From: a virus
Virus record (IMG/VR): IMGVR_UViG_3300020171_000018
Location: 21,803 to 85,802 of that record
DNA length: 64,000 nucleotides
Direction: 5' to 3' (one strand)
Both the position numbers and the translations under genes were made by a program. Shown here in pieces: positions 4,537 through 23,421 of this stretch. Every line of letters begins with the position of its first letter. The stretch's first letter is position 1. The notes beneath the pieces were generated by a model. That model was given only the letters and a program-made list of their open reading frames with translations. It searched no databases and had not been told where the DNA came from.

Positions 4537-5193
4537 ATGAGCCTAGAGACTACCCTTCCAGCCAAGGTGCAAATAGCCAACCTCTTTGCCAACTCAGGTC
4601 CCCAGGTCTCATCTTGGGCCAAGCTGGGGCGCCTAGTCAACCCTCCCATCTCCCGTGAGCGGGCCAGGGTGATAGGTCGCATCCTTGGCCTCTCCCTGCC
4701 CGAGAAGAATAGCTCGCACCTGTGCCAGTCCTGCGGCACAAAGGTACACCGGGCATCCAACATCTGCCGGGCCTGCAACAGTCAGAAGAGGTTCGCGGAC
4801 TCCTCGGTGGAGCTCACCTGCACTGGCTGCGGTGTCATCAAGCGGGTCCTGAAGTCCTACGCACGGGAGCTGGAACGGAGAGGCCACAAACGGTTCTACC
4901 ATGACCGGGCCTGCTTCTTGGCTCACGGCGGCAGGCCCCCTAGTGGATCCGTGGCGTCCATGCAGACCATCAAGCCCGGGGAGGCCAGGCGCATTGAGCA
5001 CCCAGATGTATCCTGCATATCCAGAAAGGCTCAGGGGCGGGGGTCTGGGTACATTTGCACTCTGGCCCATGCGTTCTATCGGACTGGGTGGAAAGGGGTG
5101 GTGTACCATGAGGGGGAGCATGTGGCGGTGGTAGTGAGGTTCCCAGAGTCAACCATTATCCCTTCATATGCCTATCTGGTTAACTCCCAATGA
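4537..5193 (+). CDS. HTH (sigma70 region 4-like) plus Zn-finger protein; C-terminus rewritten by an insertion
   Basis: ISRERARVI helix and three CxxC pairs; last 8 residues come from the TIR at 5167. Confidence 0.6.
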   Translation: MSLETTLPAKVQIANLFANSGPQVSSWAKLGRLVNPPISRERARVIGRILGLSLPEKNSSHLCQSCGTKVHRASNICRACNSQKRFADSSVELTCTGCGVIKRVLKSYARELERRGHKRFYHDRACFLAHGGRPPSGSVASMQTIKPGEARRIEHPDVSCISRKAQGRGSGYICTLAHAFYRTGWKGVVYHEGEHVAVVVRFPESTIIPSYAYLVNSQ

Positions 5194-5985: not shown

Positions 5986-6124
5986 TCCCTTCAAACCCCT
6001 TCTAACACCCCCTGAAAACCAGTACCGCCAATAGTGGCCCAGGCTATCAGCGGCACCGGAAGGAGGGTCGCCACGAAGCGGCGAGGATGAATGCTAAGTA
6101 GGCGCTACTGCCATTGGCTCCTTC

Positions 6125-6592
6125 TCATGCTATCCTCAGTGGAGTCAGCACCCTCGTCCTGATGGTAGTCACCTTGCTGCGCACGTCTTCAATTTCGGAT
6201 ATGACGGCAGAGACGGCGATGCTCAGGCTGTAGGTCACGTAGTCAGCAGGAGCCAGCGGGTCATGTGGGTCAGGTCCATTGGCTGCTGCGGTGATGAAGT
6301 TGCCCCCTGTGATGCTTACTCGCACAAAGGATGGCCCTCCTCTGTCCGCAGCCTTCAGTCGCCAGCCGTTCAGCAGCTCCACGGTCAACCCGGTCTTGAG
6401 GCCACCACCTAGGTCATTCTGCCCGGATGCCCTGGCGACAATCTTGCTGTCCATGTGGTTCAGGTTGGCCGAGGCATCATGGGCAGAGTCGTAGATTTCT
6501 TGGAGCGTGATGGTCACGTAGGCTATCTGCAACTCCATAATCTGCGTATCGAAGTTGAAGTCGAACTTCCCAAAGGTCTGAGTGTTAGCCAC
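6125..6592 (-). CDS. Putative virion protein resembling the N-terminal domain of 6872-9364
   Basis: ITLQEIY...LLNGW versus SAQTMYSELQD...MINGW. Confidence 0.55.
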   Translation of the reverse strand: MANTQTFGKFDFNFDTQIMELQIAYVTITLQEIYDSAHDASANLNHMDSKIVARASGQNDLGGGLKTGLTVELLNGWRLKAADRGGPSFVRVSITGGNFITAAANGPDPHDPLAPADYVTYSLSIAVSAVISEIEDVRSKVTTIRTRVLTPLRIA

Positions 6593-6875
6593 TAGTGGCT
6601 TCCTGCAACAGGTCTAGCAGTTCGACTTTATGGGCTTTCTCGTTCTTGATGCCCCCCTCAAACATCAGAACATTCGCGTCGCACTGGTCAATCGCTGCCC
6701 TCAATGCCTTCGGGTCATACCGAGTCTTGCGGGGGAGGGACATTTTGACGCTCAACTGGCCCGCCCTCGCAAGCTCCATTACATGGTTCCAGCACAGCGG
6801 GAGGTTGTCCTCCCGCCGTGTGACCACAGCATCCTCGTGACACCCGTTCTGTCCGCAAGCACCTAAGTTCTTCAT
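6585..6875 (-). CDS. Small Cys-containing coiled-coil protein
   Basis: Overlaps both neighbours at start and stop. Confidence 0.6.
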   Translation of the reverse strand: MKNLGACGQNGCHEDAVVTRREDNLPLCWNHVMELARAGQLSVKMSLPRKTRYDPKALRAAIDQCDANVLMFEGGIKNEKAHKVELLDLLQEATSG

Positions 6876-9364
6876 GTGGCGTTCGGGTCTGGGGTGCGGG
6901 TGGCCGTTGCCGACAGACCCGTTGTGCCTATGCTCCCTGTAGACTCGAACGGTACGATTGGCACGCCTGCTGATTCCCTCACCCGGATAATCACCGAGAT
7001 TGCAGTCGTCTGCACGATGTCGTTGGACTCGCTTGCAGCGTCCGCCACGCGGTCCAGGTAGGGCACATAGGCGTCGTCGTCTGTACCATATGCCCTGACC
7101 AGCCTGTTTATCTGGTAGGTGTCAGTCGACACCTGACCAGCGATGGGCGGGCTGATGGTAAGCTCCGTGGCAGTCACCGCCGTCACATAGCTGCTGAGTG
7201 CCCGGGTGACGTTGTACACGATGTCTCCCACCAGCACGGGCTCTGCACCCAGCCAGTTGGCACCCGAGTTCACCATGAGGGTGGTTGTAGTATTTGCTGT
7301 GAGCGTCCCTGCGGAGTTCGTCACCACCGTCAGCACGAATGTGACGCCGCTAAAGCTGGAGAACCGATACCTGTCCTCGATTGCCAGTACCGTGTCAATG
7401 ACGCGGATGGCCGCTCGGTTGATGTCTTTGCCGTCTGGCACATCCAACTGAATGGTTGCGTGTCCGTCCCCATCGTCAGTGATAACGATGTCCAGGTCAC
7501 TCAGGTTGTTGCCCGCCGCCAGGTTGAACGTAGCGTGCTTGTGCTCAGCACCTACTGGGGTCTGCGTGGGGAGCTTGAGGACTGCCCCGCTGGCGTCCAC
7601 CTGGAATACAGCTACGGAGTCTCCAGCCACCAGACCGCCTACCGTGACAGGCACTGTGTTCGGCGGAGCCTGCGTTGAGCCGTCGTCTCCAATCAGGGTG
7701 TAGTTCTGCTTGTCCGCCGTCGCCATAAGCTTGACGTAGACGCCCCTGGCTCCGAACAGCTTGCCTCCTGCAAATGTACCGAAAGCGGCAGCTTTGGGAC
7801 TTGAGATTGCCGTCACAACGGTACAGTTGGCCGCCGTCAACGTCGGGGTAGTAATCTGCTCCGAGGTCTGGAAGGTCCCATCGAGCCGTGTCACCATGAG
7901 GTATCCCGCCGCACCTGAAGCAGTGGCACTGGCCACGACACCCTTTGCACCTGAGGTTCCACCCGTCACGACCTCGCCCACCACAGCGTTGCCCGTCGCA
8001 CCGTTGTAGTCGAGCCGTACCTCGACGCCCTTGTAAAACTGCCCCTGTACTGCTAGGGCTGCACCGGAGTCAATATCCGCTGTGACCCCACGTCGCATCC
8101 TGTACTGGAGCACCTCATAGGTGTCCTTCATCAACTCGGCGCTGCAGTCAATCTCGACGGAGTAAAGGATTGGGCCATTACCGTTGAGCAGGTCACGGCT
8201 GATGCGTCCAAAGGTGATGGTCACATCGGACTGCGGCGCAACAGCAGCATTGATGTTGGTGATGGTGCCTACCGTGGCGACAGCACTGCTGGACTGGCCT
8301 TCGAGTACGTCACCCACAGCTATGTCAAGGTGGCCTAGCTGCATGATGTCCAGCGTGATGGTCGGGTTGCTGCCGGACTTCGCTCGTATGTAGCCAACGA
8401 AGCCCTTGTTGGAAGGCGTCGTTGGGACCTTGATAACCTCACCCACCGTGAACGTCCCACTGGATGAGGTGGTGGTCAACCGCCTCGTGCCATCCGTGTT
8501 GTTGATGTCTGTGGCGGTGGCGAAGGCGATAACGCTGTTACCACCAATCTTGCTGGCCTCAAAGTTGTCGTACACGGTGCCCTCCTTATGGGCAAAGAAC
8601 TGTACGCGGCCAGCGTTTATAGCCTTTCCCGCCTCCTGCGTCGCCACTAGGATGTCTATCTGCCCCAGTGAGCCGAGGGCCCCGTTGGTCTCTGTGGCTG
8701 ATGCATGTTCTGGAAGCACCCCGATAGGGATGCCTACTGCCGACCTGTCCTGTACGGCGTACAGTTTGGTATCGGGAGTTCCCGCTACCTGGGCGTGAAT
8801 CGTGCCCAGGGTGCTGAACTGTGACCAGAAGTTCTCGCCGGTGGCGGAGCCGCCAGTTTGGAATGTGGCGGTGAAGTTGCCCGCAGCTACGGAGTTGCTG
8901 ACCGTATATGCCTCGGTTGCGTTGTTGAAGGTGCCGGTAAGTACTCTGATATAGACGACACCTATCTCCGAGCCATACCGCTGGTCCCAGCCCAGAATCT
9001 TTCCAGTGGCGGTCGATGTAGTACCCGTGATGGTCTCACCACGGTCATCGGCCTCGAACATCACGCCCGCGCCAGAGGCGTTATAGGAGATTGCTCGAAT
9101 CACCCCGGTCGCCCATCCACTGGTCGTGAGAGAGCCTGTCTTGATGTACTGAAGCGAGTCCGAGTCTATAAACCAGCCATTTATCATGGTGAACTGAGTC
9201 GGTGTCTGTGCCGACATGGGTACCTGGTCATCCATCTGGTTCAGGGCATCGAACAGGTCCTGCAACTCTGAGTACATCGTCTGGGCACTGTAAATGTCCG
9301 TTCCAGTCAGGTGCCGTATGATTTTGTTGGCATAGTCAATGCTGAAGTCGCTTAGGAATGCCAT
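6872..9364 (-). CDS. Large virion spike/receptor-binding-like protein
   Basis: 830 aa, G/T/A-rich; repeated GExITG(G/T)TSxAxG-type units. Confidence 0.6.
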   Translation of the reverse strand: MAFLSDFSIDYANKIIRHLTGTDIYSAQTMYSELQDLFDALNQMDDQVPMSAQTPTQFTMINGWFIDSDSLQYIKTGSLTTSGWATGVIRAISYNASGAGVMFEADDRGETITGTTSTATGKILGWDQRYGSEIGVVYIRVLTGTFNNATEAYTVSNSVAAGNFTATFQTGGSATGENFWSQFSTLGTIHAQVAGTPDTKLYAVQDRSAVGIPIGVLPEHASATETNGALGSLGQIDILVATQEAGKAINAGRVQFFAHKEGTVYDNFEASKIGGNSVIAFATATDINNTDGTRRLTTTSSSGTFTVGEVIKVPTTPSNKGFVGYIRAKSGSNPTITLDIMQLGHLDIAVGDVLEGQSSSAVATVGTITNINAAVAPQSDVTITFGRISRDLLNGNGPILYSVEIDCSAELMKDTYEVLQYRMRRGVTADIDSGAALAVQGQFYKGVEVRLDYNGATGNAVVGEVVTGGTSGAKGVVASATASGAAGYLMVTRLDGTFQTSEQITTPTLTAANCTVVTAISSPKAAAFGTFAGGKLFGARGVYVKLMATADKQNYTLIGDDGSTQAPPNTVPVTVGGLVAGDSVAVFQVDASGAVLKLPTQTPVGAEHKHATFNLAAGNNLSDLDIVITDDGDGHATIQLDVPDGKDINRAAIRVIDTVLAIEDRYRFSSFSGVTFVLTVVTNSAGTLTANTTTTLMVNSGANWLGAEPVLVGDIVYNVTRALSSYVTAVTATELTISPPIAGQVSTDTYQINRLVRAYGTDDDAYVPYLDRVADAASESNDIVQTTAISVIIRVRESAGVPIVPFESTGSIGTTGLSATATRTPDPNAT

Positions 9365-9379
9365 GTCGTCCTCCTCATG

Positions 9380-11116
9380 CTACAGATTTGGGTCTACCGA
9401 TAATGCTATGGTTGAAACCAGTCCCGTTGCAGGAATCGTTGAAGGAGTCGAAATGGGAACGTATCGGGTGCTTCCTACGGATGTCTTGCGCACCCGTATT
9501 GTAACGGCCTTTGGGGTTGAGCCAGGATAGCTTCCAGAGGCTATCCCGTCTGGCGCCACACTCAGTGTATTCATGTACTCATCGTTGGTCGTTGCGTCGT
9601 AGACGCCTACCCGTGCGTCTATCACTGCCACTGCGCCTTGGTCAACGATGGTCAGGGTAATATCCACTGAAGAAGAGAAGGTCATTGTGCCCGCGCCAGC
9701 GTTCTCTGCGGTCAGCCCTGTTGTGCCCCCAACAATGGCAACAACAGTGTTGCTGGCCCCCTCATAGCGTACAGCCAGAGCGACCGTTCCAAACGTGAGG
9801 TTGGTGAACGTCAGGGTAGGCGAGGGGGTACTCTCCACCACGATGGAGTGAAAGGCAGGGTTCACAAACAGCGAACTCTGGCAGTTTGTGCTGTTGTCCC
9901 ACTTCACTGCGCCGTCCAATGTCCCAACAATCGAGTTCAGTATGTTGCAGTTGCGGACTTTGGCTGCCCCTAGGTAGACACGTCCACAGGCATCGAACGT
10001 GGTGCCGAATATCTCGTCGCTAACGTCGCAGTTAGTGAAGTCAATGGCGTTGGCTTCGTCCGCCCGCTCACAGTTCTTGAAGGTTGTAGCATAGAGGTCA
10101 AAGTCCTCCACCGCAGCGGTCCTGGTAAGACGCCACCCCTGCCGTGTAGACCCTGAGTTGATTTCGGGGTTCGCCGCCACGGAGAAACTCGGCCCGCTGC
10201 GTCCTCGGTCAGTACCCACAGCCACGCCAAACGTAACCACCGTATCACCCGATGGAGTCGTGGCATTGCCCACCACATCAAGTCCCCAGTAGCACAGCCC
10301 CGCTGCGTCCTCGTCGGGAACCGCCTTGACCCTGCTGGTGCCGTTGTAGTACATGGGAGTTTCCCAGACAAGGTTTTCTGCCTGACTGGAGAAGGTCAAG
10401 CCTGCAGCCGCAACGGCGTCGCCCAGCACAAACTTACACCTACAGAAGAAGGTGCCTGCCTTTTCAATAATCATGCCGTAGCGTCGGCTCTTGGTACCCC
10501 AGTCCCAGTCCGCTATCTCCTTGAAGCCCGCACCTGCAACCGCCACGGTGCCGGATACCCGTATCTCACCACGCCCATAGCATATCTGGTCTATGGCGAA
10601 GTTCTGACCTTTGGCGGTGCCAGTCGTTGTGATTGTCGCTCCAAAGTACTGAATGCTGGAAAGGGTCAGTCCAGCGCCACCGTAGGTGGAACGTGTCTGA
10701 CTTGGGTCAATCACGTACATCACCCAACCATCACTATCAGGAATACCATAGTCAGAGCCACCCACGTAATACTCGTTATAATCAGTGGTAGTAGTACCAA
10801 GGCGAATGGAGAGGCCACCAAGCGCAAGAGTTTGGATTAGCTTTGGCGTGTTGCAGCGCAGCCACATGAAGATGAGCATCTTGTAGGCTGCTCCACCTGA
10901 GGCGAAGTTGAGTCCCGACCCCCTGTTGTACCACGCCCCCTTTGTGACTGCACCCGATACCGCTTTTGAGATACAACCAGCACCAGACCCAGCCGTCCGC
11001 TGCACCCAAGTGTCAGTTTCATCCACTATTGAAGTAGTGCCAATTTGAATCCACACTGACCCACCGGCATCGGCATCGTTCAGCACCGTTAGGTCTGTGC
11101 TTATTGCGAGTGTCAT
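9380..11116 (-). CDS. Virion protein (lectin-like N-terminus, beta-helix-like centre, Ig-like C-terminus)
   Basis: 578 aa beta-rich; xTFxNC/xTFDAC-type repeats. Confidence 0.5.
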   Translation of the reverse strand: MTLAISTDLTVLNDADAGGSVWIQIGTTSIVDETDTWVQRTAGSGAGCISKAVSGAVTKGAWYNRGSGLNFASGGAAYKMLIFMWLRCNTPKLIQTLALGGLSIRLGTTTTDYNEYYVGGSDYGIPDSDGWVMYVIDPSQTRSTYGGAGLTLSSIQYFGATITTTGTAKGQNFAIDQICYGRGEIRVSGTVAVAGAGFKEIADWDWGTKSRRYGMIIEKAGTFFCRCKFVLGDAVAAAGLTFSSQAENLVWETPMYYNGTSRVKAVPDEDAAGLCYWGLDVVGNATTPSGDTVVTFGVAVGTDRGRSGPSFSVAANPEINSGSTRQGWRLTRTAAVEDFDLYATTFKNCERADEANAIDFTNCDVSDEIFGTTFDACGRVYLGAAKVRNCNILNSIVGTLDGAVKWDNSTNCQSSLFVNPAFHSIVVESTPSPTLTFTNLTFGTVALAVRYEGASNTVVAIVGGTTGLTAENAGAGTMTFSSSVDITLTIVDQGAVAVIDARVGVYDATTNDEYMNTLSVAPDGIASGSYPGSTPKAVTIRVRKTSVGSTRYVPISTPSTIPATGLVSTIALSVDPNL

Positions 11117-11319
11117 GGATAAGCCTCGTCAAGTGCGGCCTGTAGCTCTGCCTCAGTCAGTGTATCATCCCACGGACCATTGTTCTTGACACCTCTCTCA
11201 ATAACACAGTGCCCCTTCACGCACATGACACCAAAGCGGGCAATGTTCACCTTGAGCACCCACACTATCTCCTTGTCCAGTGAGCATCGTCCATAGACCG
11301 CGACATCGCTTACTAGCAT
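11113..11319 (-). CDS. Small Cys-containing protein
   Basis: ATGA overlap with downstream gene. Confidence 0.55.
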   Translation of the reverse strand: MLVSDVAVYGRCSLDKEIVWVLKVNIARFGVMCVKGHCVIERGVKNNGPWDDTLTEAELQAALDEAYP

Positions 11320-11320
11320 A

Positions 11321-11833
11321 TTAAGCCACCCTCTTCCGCCAGAGCTGGTAGGTGTATGTCCTGTTCACACCTGCCATTTGCTGTAGCGTGAGCTTGAGGC
11401 CATACTTGGCAGGTTTGGTCGTAATGAATAGAACGAACAGGGTTTGAGCATCCAAGTAGGTCTCCTCCGCATACTTGAGATAGGTTGTAGGACCCGTCAC
11501 GAGGCTCATGTACTGGCGGATGATTAGCGTGTCGCCAGCCTGCATTGGACTCAGGCCAACATAGCCCTCTAAGTACCTGCTGGGGTTGCCTGCCGTCTCG
11601 TCTAGGATGATGTTCTGCTCAAGGCCGTCTGCGACGATGGTTCCCTCGATGGCGGCGTCGAAAGCTTCTATCCTATCTATGCGGGCCTTTCTGGCACCCG
11701 TACCAGCCTCGAAGGTCGCGTCCTCACCCAAGAGGTCCGTCCTGGGTTGACCGGTAAGAGCGGTCAGCGCCCTAGTCGCGTGTCCCCATATCTCACCTAC
11801 GCTTGCGCCTCCTCTAGCCGGAAAGTCAGGCAT
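11321..11833 (-). CDS. Putative minor capsid/vertex protein (beta-sandwich)
   Basis: C-domain paralogous to 11844-12200 and 63307-64000. Confidence 0.55.
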   Translation of the reverse strand: MPDFPARGGASVGEIWGHATRALTALTGQPRTDLLGEDATFEAGTGARKARIDRIEAFDAAIEGTIVADGLEQNIILDETAGNPSRYLEGYVGLSPMQAGDTLIIRQYMSLVTGPTTYLKYAEETYLDAQTLFVLFITTKPAKYGLKLTLQQMAGVNRTYTYQLWRKRVA

Positions 11834-11843
11834 GGCTTACCCC

Positions 11844-12200
11844 TCACATCTCGCTGAAGAACTCGTAATCTACATCAACATCCGGCCCTGCCACCGTCCG
11901 AACCGTGACCTTTAGCCCATAGGTATCCGGGCGCCCCTCGATAAAGACCACCGGGCTGGGCAGGGGTGCCGTATAGGTCTCCTGATGGTACTGTTGCCAA
12001 GCGCCCCCTGGCCTTACTTTCACGTAGAGCGCCACAACAACGGAGCCGCCCGGTGCCAACTTTGACAGGTCTACGTAGCCCGATAGTTTGTGGGGGACGC
12101 CCCCAGATGCCTCAACGAGTGGGGACTCTGCATTGCTGCACAGAACGCTCCCAGAGCCCAACTCGTAAAGTCCCCGCACCCTAACCGTAGTGATTCCCAT
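11844..12200 (-). CDS. Putative minor virion protein (beta-sandwich)
   Basis: GYVDLSKL...ETY...YGLKVT motif shared with neighbour. Confidence 0.55.
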   Translation of the reverse strand: MGITTVRVRGLYELGSGSVLCSNAESPLVEASGGVPHKLSGYVDLSKLAPGGSVVVALYVKVRPGGAWQQYHQETYTAPLPSPVVFIEGRPDTYGLKVTVRTVAGPDVDVDYEFFSEM

Positions 12201-12204
12201 GATT

Positions 12205-12771
12205 CTACCTTCGCCATCCTTCTTGCCCGGGGATGGCCGTTGCGTCCCCCTGCTCGATGGGGGTCTTTCCTTCAATGACGCTCAATCGAATAGCCGCCGT
12301 AGCCCCAGCCACCGCCGTTTGGAAGAACAACCTGTAGATAATCGGGTAGCGAAGGTCCACTCCGTAGCTCTCAGTTGGCAGTACGAAGTGGGCGTACATC
12401 AGAGCGTCCTGATTATTTATAGCCACACCTACATTGTTGGGCCCGTCGTTTATCACATTGAATGAGATGCAGGGTCTGGGCAACTCGAACCGAGTCACGG
12501 CGAAGCCTATGGTGCGCGAGTACCCCTTACTCCCCGTTGGAATCTTGCTCTCTTCCAACCTACGCAATCGGGCAAGCTGAGCGGCAGAGGCGGCCTGCAC
12601 AAGAAACGACATCACATCAGGCCGCATCCGGGCCTCATCCCCACTCAGCACCTCTGACCCCTGCAACCCCTGAGGAGTGGCAAGCGCCGACTCCTTCAGC
12701 AAGCGGGCCAAGTCTGTTCTGTCTAGGTCTGTTCTGTCTTGGTTACTGGGGTTACTGGCGTTTTGCGTCAC
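12205..12771 (-). CDS. Putative virion protein with small jelly-roll-like C-domain
   Basis: FNVINDGPNNVGV beta motif; GGAG RBS. Confidence 0.5.
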   Translation of the reverse strand: MTQNASNPSNQDRTDLDRTDLARLLKESALATPQGLQGSEVLSGDEARMRPDVMSFLVQAASAAQLARLRRLEESKIPTGSKGYSRTIGFAVTRFELPRPCISFNVINDGPNNVGVAINNQDALMYAHFVLPTESYGVDLRYPIIYRLFFQTAVAGATAAIRLSVIEGKTPIEQGDATAIPGQEGWRR

Positions 12772-13072
12772 GGTGTATCTCCACCTCGGTTGGCAGCAGC
12801 GTCACGGGGTCCCACCGAATCTTCCAGACTTCCTTGTTGGTGTACGTGGCAGGGGCAGCAATAGGGGCAGCAACAGGAGCGCTAATGCTGTTGTTGGGGT
12901 TGCGAGAACGCAGCCATACCACTAACCCTATGGCAGCAACTAATCCCACGGCCAGCCACAGGCCAGTGTTGTCACGGTGCTCTTTACGGTTCTCTCCGCT
13001 CTCTCTGCGGGCCAGCCTTCTTGACTTAGTCGCCACGATTAGCCCCCTCCCACTCCTGTTACGGCCCCCCAA
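12752..13072 (-). CDS. Basic single-TM membrane protein
   Basis: Arg-rich N-terminus, TM LWLAVGLVAAIGLVVWL, then RNP. Confidence 0.65.
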   Translation of the reverse strand: MGGRNRSGRGLIVATKSRRLARRESGENRKEHRDNTGLWLAVGLVAAIGLVVWLRSRNPNNSISAPVAAPIAAPATYTNKEVWKIRWDPVTLLPTEVEIHRDAKRQ

Positions 13073-13640
13073 TGGTAGCTAGGGGAGCAACCGTCTCAGG
13101 AGTCAACTTCCCGCCTGGTACGGTAGTCTCCATCCCATACACCCGCCCTTGAATCCAAGTCCTAGCCATAGCGTGATCCAACTCCCCGTCGTTGTCCAAG
13201 TCGTAGTAGGCTATGTCGGCGGGGAGACCCGCTTGACGGGCAAGACTGGCAGCCAGGATCGCCGTATCATCACAGTCTCTCCATTTTGGCACCTGTCCCT
13301 GGGCCAGCATAGAAGCGAACTCATCAGGACTCGTGATGCTCTCCATGCCAACTGGGTCATCAGTGTACCCCACCGTGTCCGATATGTAGGTCTGGATGGC
13401 CTGGGCCGCCTGAGGGGTGCCGGGGTTGGCGCCTGCTTGGGACAGCACCGAGCGGGCAAGGTGGCTCACGGACTCGCTCTGCTCCCCACGGTGCAGGAAC
13501 TCCTGAGAGGCTTGCATGACCTGATTGGCGGAGTCGGGGCTGATTGGGAACTGGACTACCTCGCCAATGCTGCTGCCGATACCTGGCCGCCCCTTGACCC
13601 CAGTAGACCCCAATCCTGACCCTTGGCTCAGTCTCAGCAC
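13059..13640 (-). CDS. Transglutaminase-like (papain-fold) putative cysteine protease
   Basis: YTDDP...DCDD (Cys)...DHA (His)...ETT (acidic) triad pattern. Confidence 0.8.
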   Translation of the reverse strand: MLRLSQGSGLGSTGVKGRPGIGSSIGEVVQFPISPDSANQVMQASQEFLHRGEQSESVSHLARSVLSQAGANPGTPQAAQAIQTYISDTVGYTDDPVGMESITSPDEFASMLAQGQVPKWRDCDDTAILAASLARQAGLPADIAYYDLDNDGELDHAMARTWIQGRVYGMETTVPGGKLTPETVAPLATIGGP

Positions 13641-13662
13641 TGCTACCCCCTCTCCCCGTATC

Positions 13663-14004
13663 TCACCCGTATCTTAGCACCAACGGGGGTGAGAATCGGA
13701 GGTTGTTCTTACCCGCTTTGCCTCGCAACACCTCAATTGTACCACTGCCCTCTAGGAAAGCCTCTTGTAATACACGGCCATAGAGGTCATCACCGGGGAG
13801 CACCCGCAACTCTCCAACCGATTTCCCACCAAGCAGCTCATCCAGTGACCAGACCGCCACGGCTCCACTATTGGGGAACACCACGGCGAGTTTTCGGTCG
13901 TGGGGCATTCCTCTGGACTCGTCTACGAACTCCACCAGTTGAAACCCAGTACCCCCCACGCCGTTACCGTGGTAGGCCACCTCATGCACCTTGATGCGCC
14001 CCAC
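13663..14004 (-). CDS. Hypothetical protein
   Basis: In operon; AAAGGGGG upstream. Confidence 0.6.
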   Translation of the reverse strand: MGRIKVHEVAYHGNGVGGTGFQLVEFVDESRGMPHDRKLAVVFPNSGAVAVWSLDELLGGKSVGELRVLPGDDLYGRVLQEAFLEGSGTIEVLRGKAGKNNLRFSPPLVLRYG

Positions 14005-14017
14005 TGCGCCCCCTTTC

Positions 14018-14335
14018 TCACTTCAATAGCCTGTTGACGACTTCCACTACCAAGCCGCCCAGGGCCACCGCTCCTGCCCAGGGGCTGAACTTGACTATGA
14101 TGTTGCGGGGCCTAGTCCTCTTCTGGTGGTTCTGCTCAAGGGTCTGCACCACCAAGTTGGGGATGGTCTGCTCCAAGCTTCTCACCATCCACCAGGCCGA
14201 GGAGAGTTGGATTGCAGTGGGAGTCGCGGACATGCCTCTCGCGGCCACCTCGTCCAGCCCTACCTCCACCAGCCTGTCCATCTGTGAGAGGTCCCTAGTT
14301 GGCGTCATATCGGTCTCCTCTTGGTGAGAGTCCAT
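14018..14335 (-). CDS. Small protein with C-terminal TM segment
   Basis: GAGGTG RBS; hydrophobic C-terminus. Confidence 0.55.
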   Translation of the reverse strand: MDSHQEETDMTPTRDLSQMDRLVEVGLDEVAARGMSATPTAIQLSSAWWMVRSLEQTIPNLVVQTLEQNHQKRTRPRNIIVKFSPWAGAVALGGLVVEVVNRLLK

Positions 14336-14436
14336 TGTGCCCCACCTCTTTGCGCACAGAATACCCAATCGTATTCTCTCCGTACAGGGAGAGGTGGCGC
14401 ATCAGTACAAAAGAGCGGGTCACACAAGTACCTACT

Positions 14437-16989
14437 TTACGCCCTTGTGGTCTTGTGGTAACTTGCGTCTCCCTTGAACCCCGTAGTGCCCGTCTTTCGG
14501 TACTCCCCAGACTTCTCGTTGTACCGATACCAGTGGTACAAGCCGCTTTTACGCACGCCAATGAGGCCACTGGGGTCACTATACCACCCCTTCGCCTTAT
14601 CTAGTTCCTTGACGCCTGTGGCACCTGGGTTGCGGAAGATGATGCTCCCGTTGACGTTGTAGAGCTGCGGGGCGGTCTTGAGCTCACCCCTGTTGGCGGC
14701 GTCCAGCTCTTGGAACGGGATAGAGTCGGGGTTCTTCTTCCCGCCCACCCCCTTTGCCCCTTTCACCCCTCGCACCCCCCTAGCCCCCCTGATGTACTCA
14801 TGGAGCGCCCCAGGGTACGCCTCAGGAGCAGCCCTAGACTCAGTGGGCTTGGTCTCAACCGTCCCCTCGGTGTGGACAAGGCCCCCTGGGGTGGTTGTGG
14901 ACTCCAGCACGGACTCAGGAGCGGGGGCATCGGGGAAGTCGGTGATGGAGCTGGCGTCCATCTCCCCAAAAGTGGGGTTGCGCTTGCCCTTGTGGTAGTG
15001 CGGCCCAATGTACCGCTTGCTGCCCTTAGTAAGTTGGTGCCCAATTGTGGCTACGAGGCCCTCTCCTTTTGCATCGTGGTAGTGCCTAGGGCCATGATGG
15101 GTCACTTTCCCGCGCCGAGAAGCATGGGTGTGCCAGTAGCCCTCTGGGTTTTGGGGGTTCTGCAGGGGCGGCTCAATCACCCTCCCTTTATCCCCAAGAG
15201 CTGGCGTCACCAGCGTCGCCAGCTCCTTCTGAGAGGTGTACTCCTCAGGGCCGGGCTGGATTGACACCCCAGCCCCGCAGCCACTGCACCGCCCGACTCC
15301 TACTGACCCAGACTCGAATGGTTGACCACAGGACGGGCATTTTAGCTCTGAAACGATTGACATTGGATTCTCCTTCCTTCTACCATATGTTCCCCCAGAG
15401 TGCCCATACCCGCCACGCTGCTTGTGAGGGGATGGGGCATTGGGGGGTATAAACGAGATTATAGGGGACTCCAAGGCCATCTCAAGGTTCAGGTATGCCA
15501 CTGTGCTACTCCAGCCAGAGTGGGCCTTGGCGAACTCCTTGGCCGCCCAGACCATTCGAGCGTGCCTGCTATCATCTTTACCCGCAAGGGCAGCTCTGGC
15601 AAGGTGATAGAGGTTCACAAGCTCAGCCTGTTCCCTTTTGTTGGCATATCTACTGGGATTCTTGCTCATATCAGCCTTCTCTCTAACAGGGCCTAGCCAC
15701 TCCTGACCCTTGCCCTTCTTCAACCCCAACTCTTTCAGGTACGCAAGGTCTCCTGCTGTGATGCTACCTTTGCCCTTGAAAGTCAACACATACTGCACGG
15801 ACGCCACGGGGCTTGGCCCAAACCACCCCGTAGGCCCAATGACTAGCTGCCCCTGAGCGTCCCACCTATTCGCTCTGAGCGTCCACCCAGGGGACATACG
15901 AGACAGGTCTGGCATATTGGTGGGATTCATGGTGAACAGTGGCAGCATCGCACCCCTCCAGGCACTTGGAACCTTCGGCCTCTTCAGCTTCTCCCCGGTA
16001 TCGCTCTTATAGTAGTGCTCCGCCATCCTGTCGTAGTACGTTTCCAGCTTCTTCAGCTTCTTCCCGTACTTCCGGCGTAGCTCTTCCTGCTCTTTGTAGA
16101 CGGGGAACTGGGCATGACCCATCTCACTCCACTCCAACATGCGCTTCGTCTTGAGCTGGACCTCAACGGGCAGGCCGTTCGACTCAACAAGCAGGTGGTA
16201 GGAGCGGTACAGGCCCTTGGGCTGGGTTATGTAGTCCTCCTCTTCTATCACATTGAACTCGCCACGAATCTTTTTCAGTCCAGCGTACAGGGAGTCCAAG
16301 GTGGAGAATACGACGCGGACGCCCGCTATGTCGGTTAGTGAGGATAGCTCAGTACCCCGCCTAGTCAGCTTCTCCATGATGCTCTCCACGGTCTTTAGCC
16401 GGGATGAGACCTTGCCGGGGAACATGCGCTCCAACTCTGTAGAGACCTGAGATAGGGACTCCCGGTAGCGTGCCTGGTACGCCTCGATGCTTGTGTCACT
16501 GAGGCCATTGGATCCCTCTGGGTTCCCCTTGGGCATCGTCTCAGAGGTGGTCAGCCACATTTTGTGACCCAATCCCAGCTTCTTAATCTCCTTCTGGGCG
16601 TCCCTTAGGCTACCAGCGAACACTAGCTTGCCATCGGAGACTCTGAATATCTTGTAGCTGGTGCTCTTGGGTATGGGGTTCCCGCTTCCTTCCTTGGTCT
16701 TCTCCAACAGTCCCAGAAACGCCTCGACCACTTCAGCCTCTGCCGCCATCTTGGTAGTGGCCCTTCTCGACCCCAGTTTCCTAGAGCCATCCCAGATAGC
16801 CCACTCCCAATCGTTGTGACCGAGCCTCTTCACCGCCGCCGAGTATTCCTGGAGGCCAAGGTAGGTCTCCCTGTCAGGGTGCAGGGCCTCCCATTCGTCA
16901 TGCCCCACAGAGCGCCAGGCTACCTTGTCCCGCATCTCCTGGAGGGCGAGCCGGCGCCTCATCAGCTTGAACTGTGTAGTCAAGGGCAT
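14437..16989 (-). CDS. Modular NP-punctuated protein containing a RelA/SpoT-type alarmone synthetase domain, Zn ribbon and His-rich module
   Basis: RLKTVESIMEKL...DIAGVRV...EEDYI..PK..YRSYH...EVQLKT; 10 Asn-Pro motifs between modules. Confidence 0.85.
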   Translation of the reverse strand: MPLTTQFKLMRRRLALQEMRDKVAWRSVGHDEWEALHPDRETYLGLQEYSAAVKRLGHNDWEWAIWDGSRKLGSRRATTKMAAEAEVVEAFLGLLEKTKEGSGNPIPKSTSYKIFRVSDGKLVFAGSLRDAQKEIKKLGLGHKMWLTTSETMPKGNPEGSNGLSDTSIEAYQARYRESLSQVSTELERMFPGKVSSRLKTVESIMEKLTRRGTELSSLTDIAGVRVVFSTLDSLYAGLKKIRGEFNVIEEEDYITQPKGLYRSYHLLVESNGLPVEVQLKTKRMLEWSEMGHAQFPVYKEQEELRRKYGKKLKKLETYYDRMAEHYYKSDTGEKLKRPKVPSAWRGAMLPLFTMNPTNMPDLSRMSPGWTLRANRWDAQGQLVIGPTGWFGPSPVASVQYVLTFKGKGSITAGDLAYLKELGLKKGKGQEWLGPVREKADMSKNPSRYANKREQAELVNLYHLARAALAGKDDSRHARMVWAAKEFAKAHSGWSSTVAYLNLEMALESPIISFIPPNAPSPHKQRGGYGHSGGTYGRRKENPMSIVSELKCPSCGQPFESGSVGVGRCSGCGAGVSIQPGPEEYTSQKELATLVTPALGDKGRVIEPPLQNPQNPEGYWHTHASRRGKVTHHGPRHYHDAKGEGLVATIGHQLTKGSKRYIGPHYHKGKRNPTFGEMDASSITDFPDAPAPESVLESTTTPGGLVHTEGTVETKPTESRAAPEAYPGALHEYIRGARGVRGVKGAKGVGGKKNPDSIPFQELDAANRGELKTAPQLYNVNGSIIFRNPGATGVKELDKAKGWYSDPSGLIGVRKSGLYHWYRYNEKSGEYRKTGTTGFKGDASYHKTTRA

Positions 16990-16991
16990 AC

Positions 16992-17402
16992 CTACCCCCC
17001 GCCCCCAAGAGTGCCCAGTAGTTCCATCACCTTTGCTCTCCCTCTCCCACCTTGATTCCTGTGCTCCCTCACAATCAACCAGTATAGCTGTCTCCCAAAC
17101 CTGTCCTTGGCTGGCCGGGAGTAGAACCCCTTGCTGGGTCTGTGCGGATACCCCAGACAGTGCGTTAACTCGTGAACCAGCCTCTTTCTGCGTTCATGCA
17201 CCCTTTGCTTGGCCCACTCAGGAGTCACCACAATCAGCTTCTTGGCCGGGACCGCCCAGATGTCTGGGTACTTCCCCCTGTACGTTGGCTCCTCTTGCAA
17301 ATACACCCGCTCCACCCCCATGATGGGGCACGCAACCTTCTCAAGCCAGTCCATGTCGGCCTGGTGAATCAGGACCGCTCCTCTGGCCAACTTGGCGGGC
17401 AT
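16992..17402 (-). CDS. Zincin-like metallopeptidase
   Basis: LVHELTHCLGYPH (HExxHxxGxxH). Confidence 0.7.
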   Translation of the reverse strand: MPAKLARGAVLIHQADMDWLEKVACPIMGVERVYLQEEPTYRGKYPDIWAVPAKKLIVVTPEWAKQRVHERRKRLVHELTHCLGYPHRPSKGFYSRPAKDRFGRQLYWLIVREHRNQGGRGRAKVMELLGTLGGGG

Positions 17403-17625: not shown

Positions 17626-19806
17626 CTAGCTCACCATCAGAGTGGCACCACAGTCACACTGGTACACCCCGGGGTCAGGGTTCCCGATTGACCCCTGGCA
17701 TGAGGGGCAGCTCAGAGATGGGTTCCTTCCGGGATTGCTCCTTCTGGGATTACCTGGGTTAGCCTCCACCGTCTTTGCCCCTGCTACCAGACTACTCACC
17801 ACCTCTTTACTCGGTGCCGCCACAAACAGCGGCATGATAACGATGTCCTGCATGACGCTCCCTGAGAACGTCCCGGGGCTGCTCTCGGTAGTCAGACCCA
17901 CTGATATGGTCTCGGTCTCCTTGAACGTCCTGACAACGGTGTCACTGAGGTAGCTTGCGTCAAAGGCTATGTACCGTCTCTTGTCTTGCCCCGTCCAATC
18001 TCCATTGAGAGACGCTGGCACCAGAGCGGCCTTGGGGTCAGAGTACGTGAATACCAGCAGCCTATCTCCGGCTATCCCCACTGTGCTCCAAGGCATGAAC
18101 CCCACCTGTTTGGACTCCTTGTACCTACCAGTAATCAGGCCCCCAGTTTCCGCAAGGGCCGCCACCAGTGCCCCAGCCCTCACATCGAAGCCCCACTCCT
18201 GCCCGGAAGGGATTAGTTGGGGGTAGTTGGGGAACTTGCCTAGTATCCCCTTGAACGATTGCTCCTTATCCCCAACGGCCACAACCAGACCGGGGACATC
18301 GCTGACCTCGGTGCTGATAATGCTGCCTGCCCTGTTCTTGTTCACAAAGGTCTCATAGCTGGATACTGGAACGAAGTCAATCAGGGCCTTGCCACCCTTG
18401 AGTGCCTTTGCAGGTATGCCAGACGCCCACTTTGCCAGCTCCTTAGCGGGGATGTTGGCCGTCCAATCACCCCTCCCCGCAGTCTCTAGGGTCAGTGATG
18501 CGTGGGCCAGCCGGAACCCGTCCGCCGCTGCCAGGTCTAGGAGCTCCCCCTGCTTCTGGATGTTGATGCAGGTAAGAGTGGGCCTTGCTCTGTCGGTAGC
18601 AGCGTACAGGGTTATGCGCTTGATTACGTCCACGAGCAGGTTGGCACTGATTGTTGAGGGGTCACCAGCGGGCTTGCCAATCCTAGACTTGGCTACCTCC
18701 TCAGCCTCCTGAGCAGCTTTGGCCTCAGCAGCCTCCTTCTGCTTCTTGCGCTCGGCGGCCTCCTTGACCTCTTGAATGGCCTGTTTCGCCAAGGGGTGGA
18801 GAGGCTTGACCTCATCCTCTGGGCCCCATCTACCGCCGCTGAACAGGTCGGAAGGCCCACCCAGCACGCCTACCGTGTCATCGCTTTGAGAGACGGGCCC
18901 TACCCCGACCTCCAGACTGTTTGCCTCCTCTAGGACCGGGCTGGGTGGGGGCAATTTTACCAGAACGAACTTCCCCTGCACATTTTGGAACTCCTCACCG
19001 CCTTGGGCCCCCGCAAACATAATGGGGAGAGAGTGCTTTGCTAGACTCTCTTCATGTTCCAGCCAGCTCCTCCAGTGCGGGTCAGCCTGCAACTCCTCCT
19101 TTGCTACAGCCCTAATGTAAGCTACATGGTGGGCTCCGTCAGCCCCCAACCAAGAGGCCATCTCATACCACTGGCCCAGTTTGAGCCCATATTTGTCGGC
19201 CTGCTTTTGGCGTTCCCCCTTGACCCTAGCTAGGGCCTGCCGTGATGCCCACTGGTAGCCGAATAAGGACCGATTGAACTTGCTTGTCTTGACCGCCTCA
19301 CCCAGCCCCACAATCCGGCTAATGGTCCGTCCCACCTTGTTGTTGCCTACAGGCTTGGGAGGGTGCATGGTGTCCATATTGGCCCACCGCACGGCCTCCC
19401 AAGCAGACGGCTCACTATGAACCCCTCGCTCTCTGGTAAGAATCTCTCGTAGCCTCTCGGTGCTAGGCTTGCCCCCGTACCTAGTGGACATTATCACGTA
19501 CCCCTCAGGGCCCTTCACTAGGTAGTAGTCCAGCCGTGGGTCCCCATAGCGCCCAGTAGTGCCGGGTTTGGAGGCGTATAGGACGGGCGTCTCGGTTATC
19601 AGCCCGTCCAAGGCAGCAATAGCCTGTTGCTGGGTGGCCTCAGCATCGGCAACAGCCTTGTCCAGCTTAGCAGCCTCACGGTCATACTCCCCTTGGTCTG
19701 GGGTAGAGGGGGGCATAGTGGTCTCCCCACGGTGGGAAGCCTCTACAGCCCAAGGTTCGCCAGCCTGTACATGCTCCTCAAAGGGCGGATTGCGGGACAT
19801 GCTCAC
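17626..19806 (-). CDS. Modular protein with partial DNA polymerase III beta clamp (domains II-III) and C-terminal Zn ribbon
   Basis: ATDRARPTLTCI, AADGFRLA, GKFPNYPQLIP, IAFDASYL, IMPL motifs; NP motifs only at the termini. Confidence 0.8.
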   Translation of the reverse strand: MSMSRNPPFEEHVQAGEPWAVEASHRGETTMPPSTPDQGEYDREAAKLDKAVADAEATQQQAIAALDGLITETPVLYASKPGTTGRYGDPRLDYYLVKGPEGYVIMSTRYGGKPSTERLREILTRERGVHSEPSAWEAVRWANMDTMHPPKPVGNNKVGRTISRIVGLGEAVKTSKFNRSLFGYQWASRQALARVKGERQKQADKYGLKLGQWYEMASWLGADGAHHVAYIRAVAKEELQADPHWRSWLEHEESLAKHSLPIMFAGAQGGEEFQNVQGKFVLVKLPPPSPVLEEANSLEVGVGPVSQSDDTVGVLGGPSDLFSGGRWGPEDEVKPLHPLAKQAIQEVKEAAERKKQKEAAEAKAAQEAEEVAKSRIGKPAGDPSTISANLLVDVIKRITLYAATDRARPTLTCINIQKQGELLDLAAADGFRLAHASLTLETAGRGDWTANIPAKELAKWASGIPAKALKGGKALIDFVPVSSYETFVNKNRAGSIISTEVSDVPGLVVAVGDKEQSFKGILGKFPNYPQLIPSGQEWGFDVRAGALVAALAETGGLITGRYKESKQVGFMPWSTVGIAGDRLLVFTYSDPKAALVPASLNGDWTGQDKRRYIAFDASYLSDTVVRTFKETETISVGLTTESSPGTFSGSVMQDIVIMPLFVAAPSKEVVSSLVAGAKTVEANPGNPRRSNPGRNPSLSCPSCQGSIGNPDPGVYQCDCGATLMVS

Positions 19807-19819
19807 TCTCCTAGGCAGC

Positions 19820-21211
19820 CTAACTCACTTGGAACTCAGCGCCACACCCGTCGCACCGATACGTGCCAGCGCCCAGGCTGCCCACCCCCTGGTTGCAGCC
19901 TGGGCAGGAAAGGGAGTCTGGGTTCCCTCTTGGTGTCCCTTCGTACTCTCGTATCAATCTGTCCTGAGTAGCGTTGTCGTACCCATGCCACACACCGGCG
20001 GTCACCTGAGCAATCCGCCTCTTGCCGAACTTGGGATACTCAGCCTTGATTCTGGGCAGCATCATGGCCCACCACTTGGCGGGGGGTCTGGTGGACTTCC
20101 CAGGCGCTGAGCGGGGATTCAGGGAAGGGGCACTCCCGCCTTCCCCCTCAACATACCTTTGGGCTACCTTGCGCGGCAGCGTCTCACGCTCTATCTTGGG
20201 TAGGCGCTCACTTACTAGCCGTTGTAGCTCATCCCGACCCTTCTCATTGGTAGGTCTGCCTACCCACATCTGCTCGACGCTGCCCTTGAATGGTAGCTCT
20301 ATTTGGCGCACGTCTGTGAGCCCATATTGGTCTACGAGCCATTGGTCAGGCCCCTCTTTTGTACCAAGATAGCGCCAACCCCTAACCGCCAACTCGGCAA
20401 TTAGCACATGGCGCTCACGGCCAGACCCAAACATCCACAGATTGCCCTCCAGCTTCTTGGTAACTGAGGTAATGCCCCGAAGGGAAGACGGCAGCGGCTT
20501 TCCACGAGGGTTAGTATGGTCAAGGCCAACCTGTTCAGGTCTTAGCCCTGCCTTGGCATAGGCAAAGCATGTCTTGTGGTAGGTGTGCAGCTTCCCCACC
20601 TTCACACCTCCAGCATAGATGGGGCGCGTGCAGAAGAAGCAGGTAGCCTTGCCCCTCTCCTGCTTTCGGGAGCGCCAGGTCCGCTTGGAGACGGCTGAGC
20701 GTTCGGCGTGAGAGAGGGGGTTCATGCAGCACCCTGGGTTCTTTCCACCACAACACCCAGCCCTGACCCCTGGGTTAGCTACTGGTTGGTAGGCGTGCTG
20801 CTCCACCCACTCCATAGCCTTGGCTCTAGCCTTAAACCAGCGCACCTTTGCCTTGCTGGGGGCTATCCAAGCTTTCGCCCTCCACGGCTTACCCTCGTGA
20901 CCCTGGGGGGCATCGGGGAAATAGGCCACACTCCCGTATTCCAGACCGGAGAGGTCACCCCAGAACATGATGCCCTTCTCCTGTCCGGCCCATTGGAGCT
21001 TACTGGGGTTGGACACGGGTTGCGTTACATGCTGCACTACCCCATCCCCGTCCCGCACAATTACGGGCCTCTCCACGGGCCCCTCTCCAACTCCCCTGAC
21101 AACCCCCTTGGTAATGGACTGAGCGCCGGACTGGGTAGTCTCAGGCCCAGGGTGCTCTACCCTGACTGTGGCTGTTGTTTCATTCAGACTGTTCGGATTA
21201 GCCATGTCCAC
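19820..21211 (-). CDS. Modular NP-punctuated basic protein with Zn fingers
   Basis: 8 NP motifs; CFFC...HKTC and terminal CPGC...CDGC. Confidence 0.75.
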   Translation of the reverse strand: MDMANPNSLNETTATVRVEHPGPETTQSGAQSITKGVVRGVGEGPVERPVIVRDGDGVVQHVTQPVSNPSKLQWAGQEKGIMFWGDLSGLEYGSVAYFPDAPQGHEGKPWRAKAWIAPSKAKVRWFKARAKAMEWVEQHAYQPVANPGVRAGCCGGKNPGCCMNPLSHAERSAVSKRTWRSRKQERGKATCFFCTRPIYAGGVKVGKLHTYHKTCFAYAKAGLRPEQVGLDHTNPRGKPLPSSLRGITSVTKKLEGNLWMFGSGRERHVLIAELAVRGWRYLGTKEGPDQWLVDQYGLTDVRQIELPFKGSVEQMWVGRPTNEKGRDELQRLVSERLPKIERETLPRKVAQRYVEGEGGSAPSLNPRSAPGKSTRPPAKWWAMMLPRIKAEYPKFGKRRIAQVTAGVWHGYDNATQDRLIREYEGTPRGNPDSLSCPGCNQGVGSLGAGTYRCDGCGAEFQVS

Positions 21212-22710: not shown

Positions 22711-23421
22711 TTAGCTCCACTTCACTGCGATGTTTGATAGGACCCCTTCTGGTGGCGGCGGTGGCGGCGGGGGAGGAGGAGGGGTAGTGCCCTTGCCCCC
22801 CAGCATCAACAGCGCACCAACCCCTACTGCCGCTATACCCAACATCCCGCCCCCGCCCCCCTTTTCTGGGTTGCGTGGGTTGCGTGGGTTGCGCCGTACA
22901 CGGGGAACCACACCCTTCTTCGCCAGGGCCTGGTATGCGATGAACAGCCCCCCACCAATGAGAAGGAGCGGCCCCAGACCAGCGGCTATTCCTCCCCCGA
23001 TGTCTTTCCATGAAGAGCGCGCCAGCTTGAACGTCAACGCCCCAAACAGGGCTAGTATTCCGATGGCAATAGCGATTACAATGATGGCTGGCCAGGCCCC
23101 TATGCCCCCGCTTCTGGACCCCACTCCGTTCTCCGTCACAACCCCGTTCCGGACCGTGCCGCTGGACTCCCTCTCAGGCGCCCCCTCCATGTCCACCGTC
23201 ACCCGATACCCGTCGAATATCGGGGCCGTGTCCTGCTCAATGACGTAGTGGAGGAGCTTCCCCCGGAGTCCCGGAGTCCACCCGGTTCCGGCGTTTATAG
23301 CGGCTGCAATGGTGCCAGAGAGCCCCGGAGTCCCAGAGAACGCCATCACCAACTGACTGGAGGGGCCGTGGTAGCTGTCACCCCGGGGCGTAGTCACCTC
23401 TCTTGATATAGCGTAGGCCAT
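22711..23421 (-). CDS. Multi-TM membrane protein with RRNPRNPRNP and poly-Pro
   Basis: Three hydrophobic segments; GGAGG RBS. Confidence 0.75.
   Translation of the reverse strand: MAYAISREVTTPRGDSYHGPSSQLVMAFSGTPGLSGTIAAAINAGTGWTPGLRGKLLHYVIEQDTAPIFDGYRVTVDMEGAPERESSGTVRNGVVTENGVGSRSGGIGAWPAIIVIAIAIGILALFGALTFKLARSSWKDIGGGIAAGLGPLLLIGGGLFIAYQALAKKGVVPRVRRNPRNPRNPEKGGGGGMLGIAAVGVGALLMLGGKGTTPPPPPPPPPPPEGVLSNIAVKWS

Follow-up and report, generated by a model that had tools for sequence, protein, structure and literature searches.

A predicted RelP/RelQ-like alarmone synthetase bounded by Asn-Pro pairs in a multi-module protein of a groundwater virus

We describe here a viral protein that appears to carry a small alarmone synthetase (SAS) as one of about ten exchangeable modules. 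The DNA analysed (the window, 64,000 nucleotides) comprises bases 21803-85802 of one uncultured-virus genome of 85.8 kb, IMGVR_UViG_3300020171_000018, which is complete, with direct terminal repeats; groundwater metagenomes were the sole place in which near-identical DNA turned up. On its minus strand, at window positions 14437..16989, lies the gene for an 850-residue multi-module (polyvalent) protein, P0001, in which ten Asn-Pro (NP) dipeptides mark off modules of 34-199 residues; the SAS module, a RelA/SpoT synthetase domain, occupies residues 158-354 (15928..16518, minus strand). On balance we favor the explanation that P0001 is a polyvalent protein with an autonomous, exchangeable, NP-bounded synthetase of the RelP/RelQ-like kind, probably released by a zincin-like peptidase encoded beside it and probably making (p)ppGpp.

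The synthetase module

A preliminary description of this DNA, made from its letters alone, had reported complete synthetase motifs between two NP pairs, and this observation is correct as written, because the interval that it gave is exactly the residues between the second and third NP, the one pair at residues 156-157 (16519-16524) and the other at residues 355-356 (15922-15927), both on the minus strand. Within these borders the Pfam RelA_SpoT core (PF04607) is matched at residues 196-302 (16084..16404, minus strand; E 1.4e-22, 80.5 bits against a cut-off of 27), the match spanning profile positions 1-112 of 113, and a six-frame search of the whole genome finds the same match at 85.2 bits. 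The synthetase motifs (SRLKTVESIMEK, TDIAGVRVV, YRSYH, and EVQLKT) are all present, as is the residue set expected of a RelA/SpoT homologue (RSH), namely R-x-K...S...K, the Asp of D-x-x-G-x-R, the Tyr and His of Y-x-S-x-H, and the Glu and Gln of E-x-Q. When the module was aligned with 60 homologues (61 sequences; module numbering plus 157 gives the P0001 numbering used here), R197, K199, K207, D220, Y261, H265, E276, and Q278 were invariant in 61/61, and 12 further positions, including S203, G223, R225, R262, and T281, were conserved in at least 90%. Mutating the Mg-binding Asp or the acceptor-stacking Tyr inactivates FaRel2 (Kurata et al.), and these residues correspond to the D and the Y here.

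The AF2 model of the module, built on the family alignment, has a mean pLDDT of 95.8 and a pTM of 0.90 and shows an ordered chain between about residue 165 and N355. In Foldseek searches it has the fold of an SAS, the top matches being S. aureus RelP, B. subtilis RelQ and RelP, and S. pneumoniae RelQ (E 6.6e-11 to 4e-9; RelP 6.6e-11, RelQ 2e-10), with TM-scores of 0.56-0.66 over 183-195 columns, and with long Rel enzymes and CapRel ranked after RelP and RelQ. A dead or fragmentary domain is very unlikely on these data. The sequence of Syn4, EVQLKT where the usual form is EIQIRT, could be taken as the mark of a structural remnant that has lost catalysis; K and R, however, alternate at this position within the family, the eight core residues are invariant over all 61 sequences, and the predicted model is complete in fold and of very high confidence, so that we give such a remnant hardly any credence. 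Judged from sequence and model, the module is a complete and probably active RelP/RelQ-like nucleotide 3'-pyrophosphokinase.

Asn-Pro pairs at module borders

The NP pairs of P0001 begin at residues 104, 156, 355, 444, 541, 611, 614, 671, 753, and 787; these ten compare with 1.4 expected from composition (24 Asn, 51 Pro), a 7-fold excess (Poisson ~3e-6). Across the genome no dipeptide is more over-represented than NP (90 against 46.6 expected), and the pairs cluster in three adjacent proteins, 10 of them in P0001 and 6 and 8 in its neighbors of 726 and 463 residues, and with none in open reading frames (ORFs) of 878 and 557 residues. The DNA word AAYCC is frame-specific (10:0:2), the codons chosen for NP vary, and the enrichment recurs in a Hainich groundwater relative of 39% GC (L001, the contig of the stand-alone synthetase P0002; 58% GC here), in which NP occurs 28 times overall against 10.4 expected. 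For these reasons the enrichment is a feature of the protein, and a DNA-level motif behind it was ruled out. Ribosome skipping of the 2A kind was likewise ruled out, no NPGP being present; to our knowledge such skipping is confined to eukaryotic ribosomes.

The pair that closes the synthetase module is conserved throughout its clade. NP stands at the position equivalent to NP355 in 10/10 of the closest representatives, within the motif LPxFxLNP, and in 7/7 of those with an N-terminal extension the first conserved helix (IExYRxSF) is preceded, at a distance of 2-10 residues, by another NP. The module that follows the synthetase in P0001 (residues 357-444; 15658..15921, minus strand) is shared by P0128, a protein with no synthetase, whose homology to P0001 starts at residue 354, and the matches of P0002, P0125, and P0129 to P0001 end at residues 356-357, so that all four breakpoints lie no more than 1-3 residues away from NP355. 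Most of the more distant relatives simply stop at the NP355 position. P0123 shares later modules of P0001 at 53-69% identity, other modules being swapped between conserved NPs. Because the homology breakpoints, the clade-wide NP, and the ends of the relatives coincide, NP marks units that have been shuffled in evolution, and the position is a natural domain end. One new element is this clade-wide conserved NP at the C-terminal edge of the module, with homology breaking there.

Some further features of NP-rich proteins are recorded here as observations in their own right. The neighbors of 726 and 463 residues have near-identical C-terminal tails, of the form NP(D)SLSCPxC...Y(Q/R)CDxCGA..VS-stop; residues 542-611 of P0001 (15157..15366, minus strand; CPSC...CSGC) are the same kind of NP-preceded zinc ribbon in an internal position; and in the stand-alone synthetases P0002, P0124, and P0129 a zinc ribbon directly follows LNP. 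The NP and zinc-ribbon tail may be a common handle of this set of proteins, serving as a targeting, docking, or packaging signal. Both neighbors also have an NP within their first 5-7 residues (MSRNP, MANP), which could belong to a short removable leader, or the true starts could lie elsewhere. In L001, a 519-residue ORF (10669-12228, plus strand) that overlaps the stop codon of the stand-alone synthetase has 9 NP against 1.5 expected and an NP-preceded Cys/His tail; the system in L001 is the same, except that the synthetase has a gene to itself.

The linked minimal zincin

The gene directly upstream of P0001, whose stop codon lies 2 nt ahead of the start of P0001, encodes a minimal zincin-like protein of 136 residues (16992..17402, minus strand), a candidate processing peptidase in which HELTHCLGYPH represents the motif HExxHxxGxxH. 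It matched no Pfam, PHROG, or PADLOC family. In five relatives of the synthetase module (P0126, P0127, P0129, P0130, and P0132) a zincin domain lies N-terminal to the synthetase in the same protein, and a hidden Markov model of their N-terminal ~105 residues matches the 136-residue protein at E 3e-17 and nothing else in the genome. Across the zincin alignment, H77, E78, G84, and H87 of HExxHxxGxxH are invariant, and PDIW and ITVTxEW motifs are also found. The AF2 model (pLDDT 85.5) retrieved a list made up almost wholly of zincins: abylysin (Z 7.4), selecase (Z 7.2), Wss1 (Z 7.0), jannalysin (Z 6.7), and matrix metalloproteinases. P0001 is associated with a putative zincin-like metallopeptidase, by an adjacent gene, by fusion in five relatives, and by a predicted zincin fold. 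In L001 the zincin gene (35% identity) lies two ORFs upstream of the stand-alone synthetase, and other relatives of the module carry other HExxH domains.

Two further searches touch on this gene. A low-depth contig of a relative from drinking water (run X4) joins 17023-17129, the 3' part of the zincin gene, to 16403-16489, which enters the synthetase at residue 167, with 62 other bases between them and the first two modules of P0001 skipped; it is a weak sign of a possible natural zincin-synthetase fusion like that in P0130. A word-based search found one close zincin homologue, P0272 (87% identical), and no longer forms of the zincin, a weak negative. P0272 is filed as a protein of a "Chloroflexota bacterium" metagenome-assembled genome, on a 1-kb contig, and gives a weak hint at the host or stems from mis-binned viral DNA. 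A second candidate protease for the NP-rich proteins is encoded three genes downstream of P0001, where a 193-residue ORF (13059-13640, minus strand) has a transglutaminase-like (papain-fold) core (Pfam E 2e-6).

At the level of sequence, gene fusion and conserved linkage fit a role of the zincin in the processing of NP-punctuated proteins and are the strongest argument for such processing. The pairs could also break without a protease, as the NPTH of FlhB/YscU and N42-P43 of reovirus mu1 do by Asn-Pro self-cleavage via a succinimide; no homology to these proteins came to light, no search aimed at it having been made. We found nothing relevant in the literature on Asn-Pro autocleavage in virion polyproteins.

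Alternatively, the NP pairs could be structural linkers or helix caps that are never cut, in which case the 850-residue protein would work uncut inside the cell and not in the particle, and the zincin-like protein would have some other role, as a regulator or a YbeY-like nuclease. Helices commonly start with Asn at the N-cap and Pro at N1, several modules begin NP-E/D/S, and the C-terminal tail of the synthetase is ordered in the AF2 model up to N355. The structural matches of the zincin, at Z <=7.4, are middling, all below 8, and the RNase YbeY, which has the zincin fold, is among them (Z 6.9). Recognizable virion hallmark genes are also lacking nearby. These observations speak for an uncut protein outside the particle. 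We nevertheless think linkers alone the less likely explanation, since they would leave unexplained the 7-fold excess of NP, its concentration in three adjacent proteins when ORFs of 878 and 557 residues have none, the coincidence of NP with homology breakpoints and with the natural ends of distant relatives, and the repeated fusion of the zincin to NP-punctuated proteins; polyvalent proteins, moreover, generally carry metallopeptidase domains.

The likely product of the synthetase

The ranking of solved relatives places the module nearest to enzymes of the guanosine type. By single-sequence phmmer, the best solved relatives were long Rel, RelQ, and RelP, with no toxic SAS (toxSAS) at E<0.01. 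The 61-sequence profile matched RelP and RelQ at 3e-29 to 6e-26, long Rel and RelA at 5e-22 to 9e-19, CapRel SJ46 at 1.3e-16, FaRel2 at 4e-12, and the promiscuous SaSAS at 0.22, and did not match Tas1 even at E<=10. The signature residues agree with this ranking: Apk2, which makes (p)ppApp, is set apart from guanosine-type RSH enzymes by RYT in place of AVR at Syn2, GxN in place of SxH at Syn3, and YH in place of IR at Syn4 (Paulet et al., PMC12226406), and the module, with GVR, SxH, and LK, has the guanosine-type pattern, unlike Apk2. Nor does its setting resemble that of Apk1 or Apk2, since P0001 has no MuF or PAAR domain and the genome has no HD hydrolase match. Signature residues and profile ranking together point to the guanosine (RelP/RelQ-like) type and not to the Apk (p)ppApp type, and (p)ppGpp is the likeliest product of the module.

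The preliminary description had asked where the module falls in the SAS phylogeny. In our tree it and its nine closest representatives form a clade of their own (SH-aLRT 99), apart from the housekeeping SAS, whose clade (SH-aLRT 100) leaves them out; membership of the housekeeping RelQ or RelP enzymes was not borne out. In agreement with this, the module scores 51.8 bits against the NCBIfam RelQ equivalog NF053588, for which the cut-off is 320, so that it is not a RelQ orthologue.

Other considerations call for caution over (p)ppGpp. Swapping Syn signatures does not switch specificity experimentally (PMC12226406), so the motifs alone are insufficient to read specificity, and the tree was built with no labelled references of the toxSAS subfamilies. 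The module has an isoelectric point (pI) of 9.2 and its stand-alone relatives 9.3-10.1, compared with 5.5-8.4 for housekeeping SAS, and a basic module would also suit an RNA or tRNA substrate: FaRel2 guides tRNA by a basic surface, the equivalent surface in housekeeping SAS being acidic. The same architecture might, with tRNA or (p)ppApp chemistry, be that of a growth-arresting toxin rather than a generator of the (p)ppGpp signal. CapRel is a good structural match to the module (TM-score 0.66-0.69), and the phage MuF-RSH fusions characterized so far (Apk2) yield only (p)ppApp. Such chemistry would nonetheless have to be reconciled with a profile in which CapRel and FaRel2 rank 10 or more orders of magnitude behind RelP/RelQ and long Rel and Tas1 goes unmatched, with Syn2, Syn3, and Syn4 signatures of the RSH and not the Apk2 type, and with a search that found no immunity gene or Aph1-like hydrolase. 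Because signature swaps fail and the module is basic, we favor (p)ppGpp while keeping a real, if smaller, place for tRNA or (p)ppApp chemistry, which we regard as doubtful.

Relatives and the polyvalent-protein context

An exhaustive HMMER search of 1.84 billion representatives returned 3494 proteins at E<=0.001, 259 of them at E<=1e-10. The module occurs free-standing, with a short zinc-ribbon or membrane tail, in P0002, P0124, and P0131, and a stand-alone form of 223 residues is 60% identical to it; in other relatives it is C-terminal in proteins of 300-2400 residues, or internal. Pfam domains of the larger relatives include Phage_portal_3 with RelA_SpoT (P0163), Mu_F with InPase and RelA_SpoT (P0193), LPD1 with RelA_SpoT (P0225), ddrB-ParB with a methyltransferase (P0133), RadC with InPase (P0141), InPase with a methyltransferase (P0160), and a DRAT-like ADP-ribosyltransferase (P0139). 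Scans of viral contigs with P0001 or with the zincin alignment found no relatives, a further alignment-based scan turned up nothing but distant relatives and, at the ends of contigs, long-RSH genes of hosts, and a search of the ESM Atlas with P0001 residues 356-850 gave no usable match. One distant relative, a 675-residue protein with a C-terminal RelA_SpoT domain, is encoded on a 172-kb viral contig (L005, IMGVR_UViG_3300013121_000022). The operon in which it lies (3932-15199 of that contig, plus strand) also encodes a ParB-N6 methylase, an 1112-residue protein, an ADP-ribosyltransferase, a Zeta-toxin kinase, and a type IB topoisomerase, and is likely a run of injected effectors.

In the work of Iyer et al. 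(2017, J Bacteriol, PMC5512222), RelA/SpoT is listed as a polyvalent-protein domain found in phages only, and it is proposed that these proteins are delivered with the DNA and processed by a zincin-like metallopeptidase. P0001 is a polyvalent protein of this phage type, since it joins several unrelated modules, including the SAS and a zinc ribbon, and the Pfam domains of its larger relatives are hallmarks of that class. An injected polyvalent protein with a RelA/SpoT domain is a known concept, because Iyer et al. published it.

The preliminary description went further, placing the module in a probable virion polyprotein that holds it inactive and releases it on entry. The polyprotein part of this claim is favored by the beads-on-a-string layout, by an autonomous NP-bounded module, and by relatives fused to portal and MuF domains; the virion part is less well favored, no recognizable portal, MuF, capsid, head, or tail gene being found near P0001. 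For that reason the case for packaging of P0001 is by analogy with distant relatives. A protein produced late in lytic infection would not have to be kept inactive. It should be added to the points that speak against our preferred explanation that none of the public RNA runs contains the sequence.

Hydrolase, antitoxin, and immunity genes

The same description had noted no hydrolase or antitoxin gene nearby, and both absences held up. PF13328 (HD_4), PF01966 (HD), and PF00293 (NUDIX) gave no match at E<=1 in six frames of the whole 85.8-kb genome, and control genomes were matched. The flanking small ORFs and the antisense ORFs matched no Pfam, PHROG, or PADLOC family, which is a weak negative, and a novel small inhibitor is possible. 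Two small ORFs lie downstream of P0001, of 116 residues (14018-14368) and 113 residues (13663-14004), and match no family; neither has a counterpart in L001, whose overlap with this block is limited to the zincin and one further gene. An antisense immunity gene was considered and set aside, the antisense ORFs in or near P0001 (15400-15696, 14710-15264, 14678-14998, and 16925-17323) matching no Pfam family. The lack of an evident immunity partner fits an effector aimed at a host that the virus need not spare.

The synthetase could instead serve as a toxin, either of the toxin-antitoxin kind or for superinfection exclusion, comparable to gp29/gp30 of mycobacteriophage Phrann; an unrecognized small neighbor would neutralize it, and it would fire against competing phages. 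A match to the PADLOC candidate defense family PDC-S33 (1.9e-19) and the small unannotated ORFs downstream would suit such a system. The partner, however, is not conserved, as L001 lacks the downstream ORFs; the antisense and downstream ORFs match no family; and the module sits in a large protein, not in a two-gene operon. We consider a system of this kind improbable.

Neighboring genes and sequence variants

The two NP-rich neighbors, both on the minus strand, are the protein of 726 residues (17626..19806), with 6 NP, a DnaN-like part, and its C-terminal NP and zinc-ribbon tail, and the protein of 463 residues (19820..21211), with 8 NP and the same kind of tail. Beyond them, a membrane protein of 236 residues (22711-23421, minus strand) has an RRNPRNPRNP run between transmembrane segments and a 12-residue poly-Pro tract close to its end.

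Variation was seen toward the C-terminus of P0001. P0122 (765 residues), its 98%-identical representative, diverges wholly past HEYIRG, in a Gly/Arg/Lys-rich repeat, and ends early in the manner of a frameshift variant, the region concerned being residues ~735-850 of P0001 (window ~14437-14785); in a minor contig of run X1, 96 bases are replaced at 14976-15073. The C-terminal modules of P0001 may be strain-variable or mis-assembled.

Proposed mechanism and significance

Under the explanation that we prefer, that of a polyvalent protein with a releasable synthetase, cuts at or near the NP pairs would divide P0001 into separate units. The likeliest agent of these cuts would be the minimal zincin encoded next to it, the alternative being self-cleavage of Asn-Pro via a succinimide. 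Once free, the synthetase would make (p)ppGpp inside the host, and would do so soon after entry if P0001 is packaged like its portal- and MuF-fused relatives; the outcome would be a stringent-like shutdown favoring the virus or blocking competitors.

A bolder proposition, which we put forward only tentatively, is that Asn-Pro is a true punctuation code, whereby groundwater viruses would carry cargo polyproteins of exchangeable modules, cut at NP by the zincin or by self-cleavage, that release an active (p)ppGpp synthetase on infection. If true, bacterial viruses would have their own equivalent of the way in which large DNA viruses of eukaryotes process polyproteins, and its cleavage signal would be defined and predictable; the modules so punctuated would include an alarmone synthetase, a clamp-like domain, zinc ribbons, and others. 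For hundreds of viral proteins that lack annotation, the module boundaries could then be read from the sequence itself.

Predictions of phage-borne alarmone synthetases date back to 2017, and bench study has been limited to MuF fusions that make (p)ppApp. The class itself is thus known; what is new here is the punctuation by NP, a dedicated minimal zincin, and a distinct clade of guanosine type with at least 150 representative relatives. Its guanosine-type features make the module a candidate for a virus switching on the host's own stringent-response signal, and the NP borders with the linked zincin allow the long-standing proposal that polyvalent proteins are cut into working units to be tested concretely and at little cost.

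Comparison with known systems

The zincin-like protein resembles the minigluzincins and other minimal zincins (abylysin, 4JIU; selecase, 4QHF; jannalysin, 4JIX; Wss1/SprT) in size, at ~105-136 residues, and in having a three-strand sheet with an HExxH helix, and differs in that its third ligand motif is metzincin-like (HExxHxxGxxH) where theirs is gluzincin-like, with identities of 11-24% and Z <=7.4. We know of no link between the minimal zincin families and viruses or Asn-Pro sites.

With the toxSAS (CapRel SJ46, 7ZTB; FaRel2, 8PU3; PhRel/Phrann gp29; Jimmy et al. 2020, Kurata et al. 2021) the module has in common that it is a basic, single-domain RSH synthetase of a mobile element, to which CapRel is a good structural match. 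It differs in a profile similarity that is weaker than that to RelP/RelQ and in being embedded in a modular protein, and P0001 has neither a recognizable adjacent antitoxin nor a fused pseudo-ZFD antitoxin domain. The Apk2 proteins are MuF polymorphic toxins with a C-terminal adenosine 3'-pyrophosphokinase that makes (p)ppApp only, and their genes are followed by the immunity genes iapK and aph1 (Bartoli/Paulet/Viala, PMC12226406); like the module, they are phage-encoded RSH synthetases on a carrier believed to be capsid-borne, and one homologue of the module, P0193, is a MuF fusion. The module itself has GVR/SxH/LK, and no MuF domain, hydrolase, or recognizable immunity gene was detected with it.

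RelP and RelQ (6EWZ, 5DEC, 2BE3, 6FGK, and 3L9D) are the best matches of the module by profile and structure, over ~190 residues and with the same catalytic residues. Identity to them is 22-26%, the tree puts them in separate clades, and the module is basic where they are acidic or neutral; it also lies inside a larger protein and has a conserved C-terminal tail of its own, KRPKxPSxW..LPxFxLNP.

P0001 departs from the class of Iyer et al. in several ways: no named polyvalent-protein domain occurs in P0001 itself, whose modules are small and uncharacterized; its putative peptidase is a separate gene of 136 residues, of an undescribed minimal HExxHxxGxxH family; its modules have Asn-Pro borders, which PMC5512222, so far as read, does not describe; and its virus has no recognizable head, portal, or tail genes nearby. 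In other respects P0001 conforms to their class: it is a viral multi-module protein in which a RelA/SpoT nucleotidyltransferase stands among unrelated modules, a zincin-like metallopeptidase is associated with it, and the homologues of its synthetase module carry LPD1, ddrB-ParB, InPase, RadC, MuF, and portal domains.

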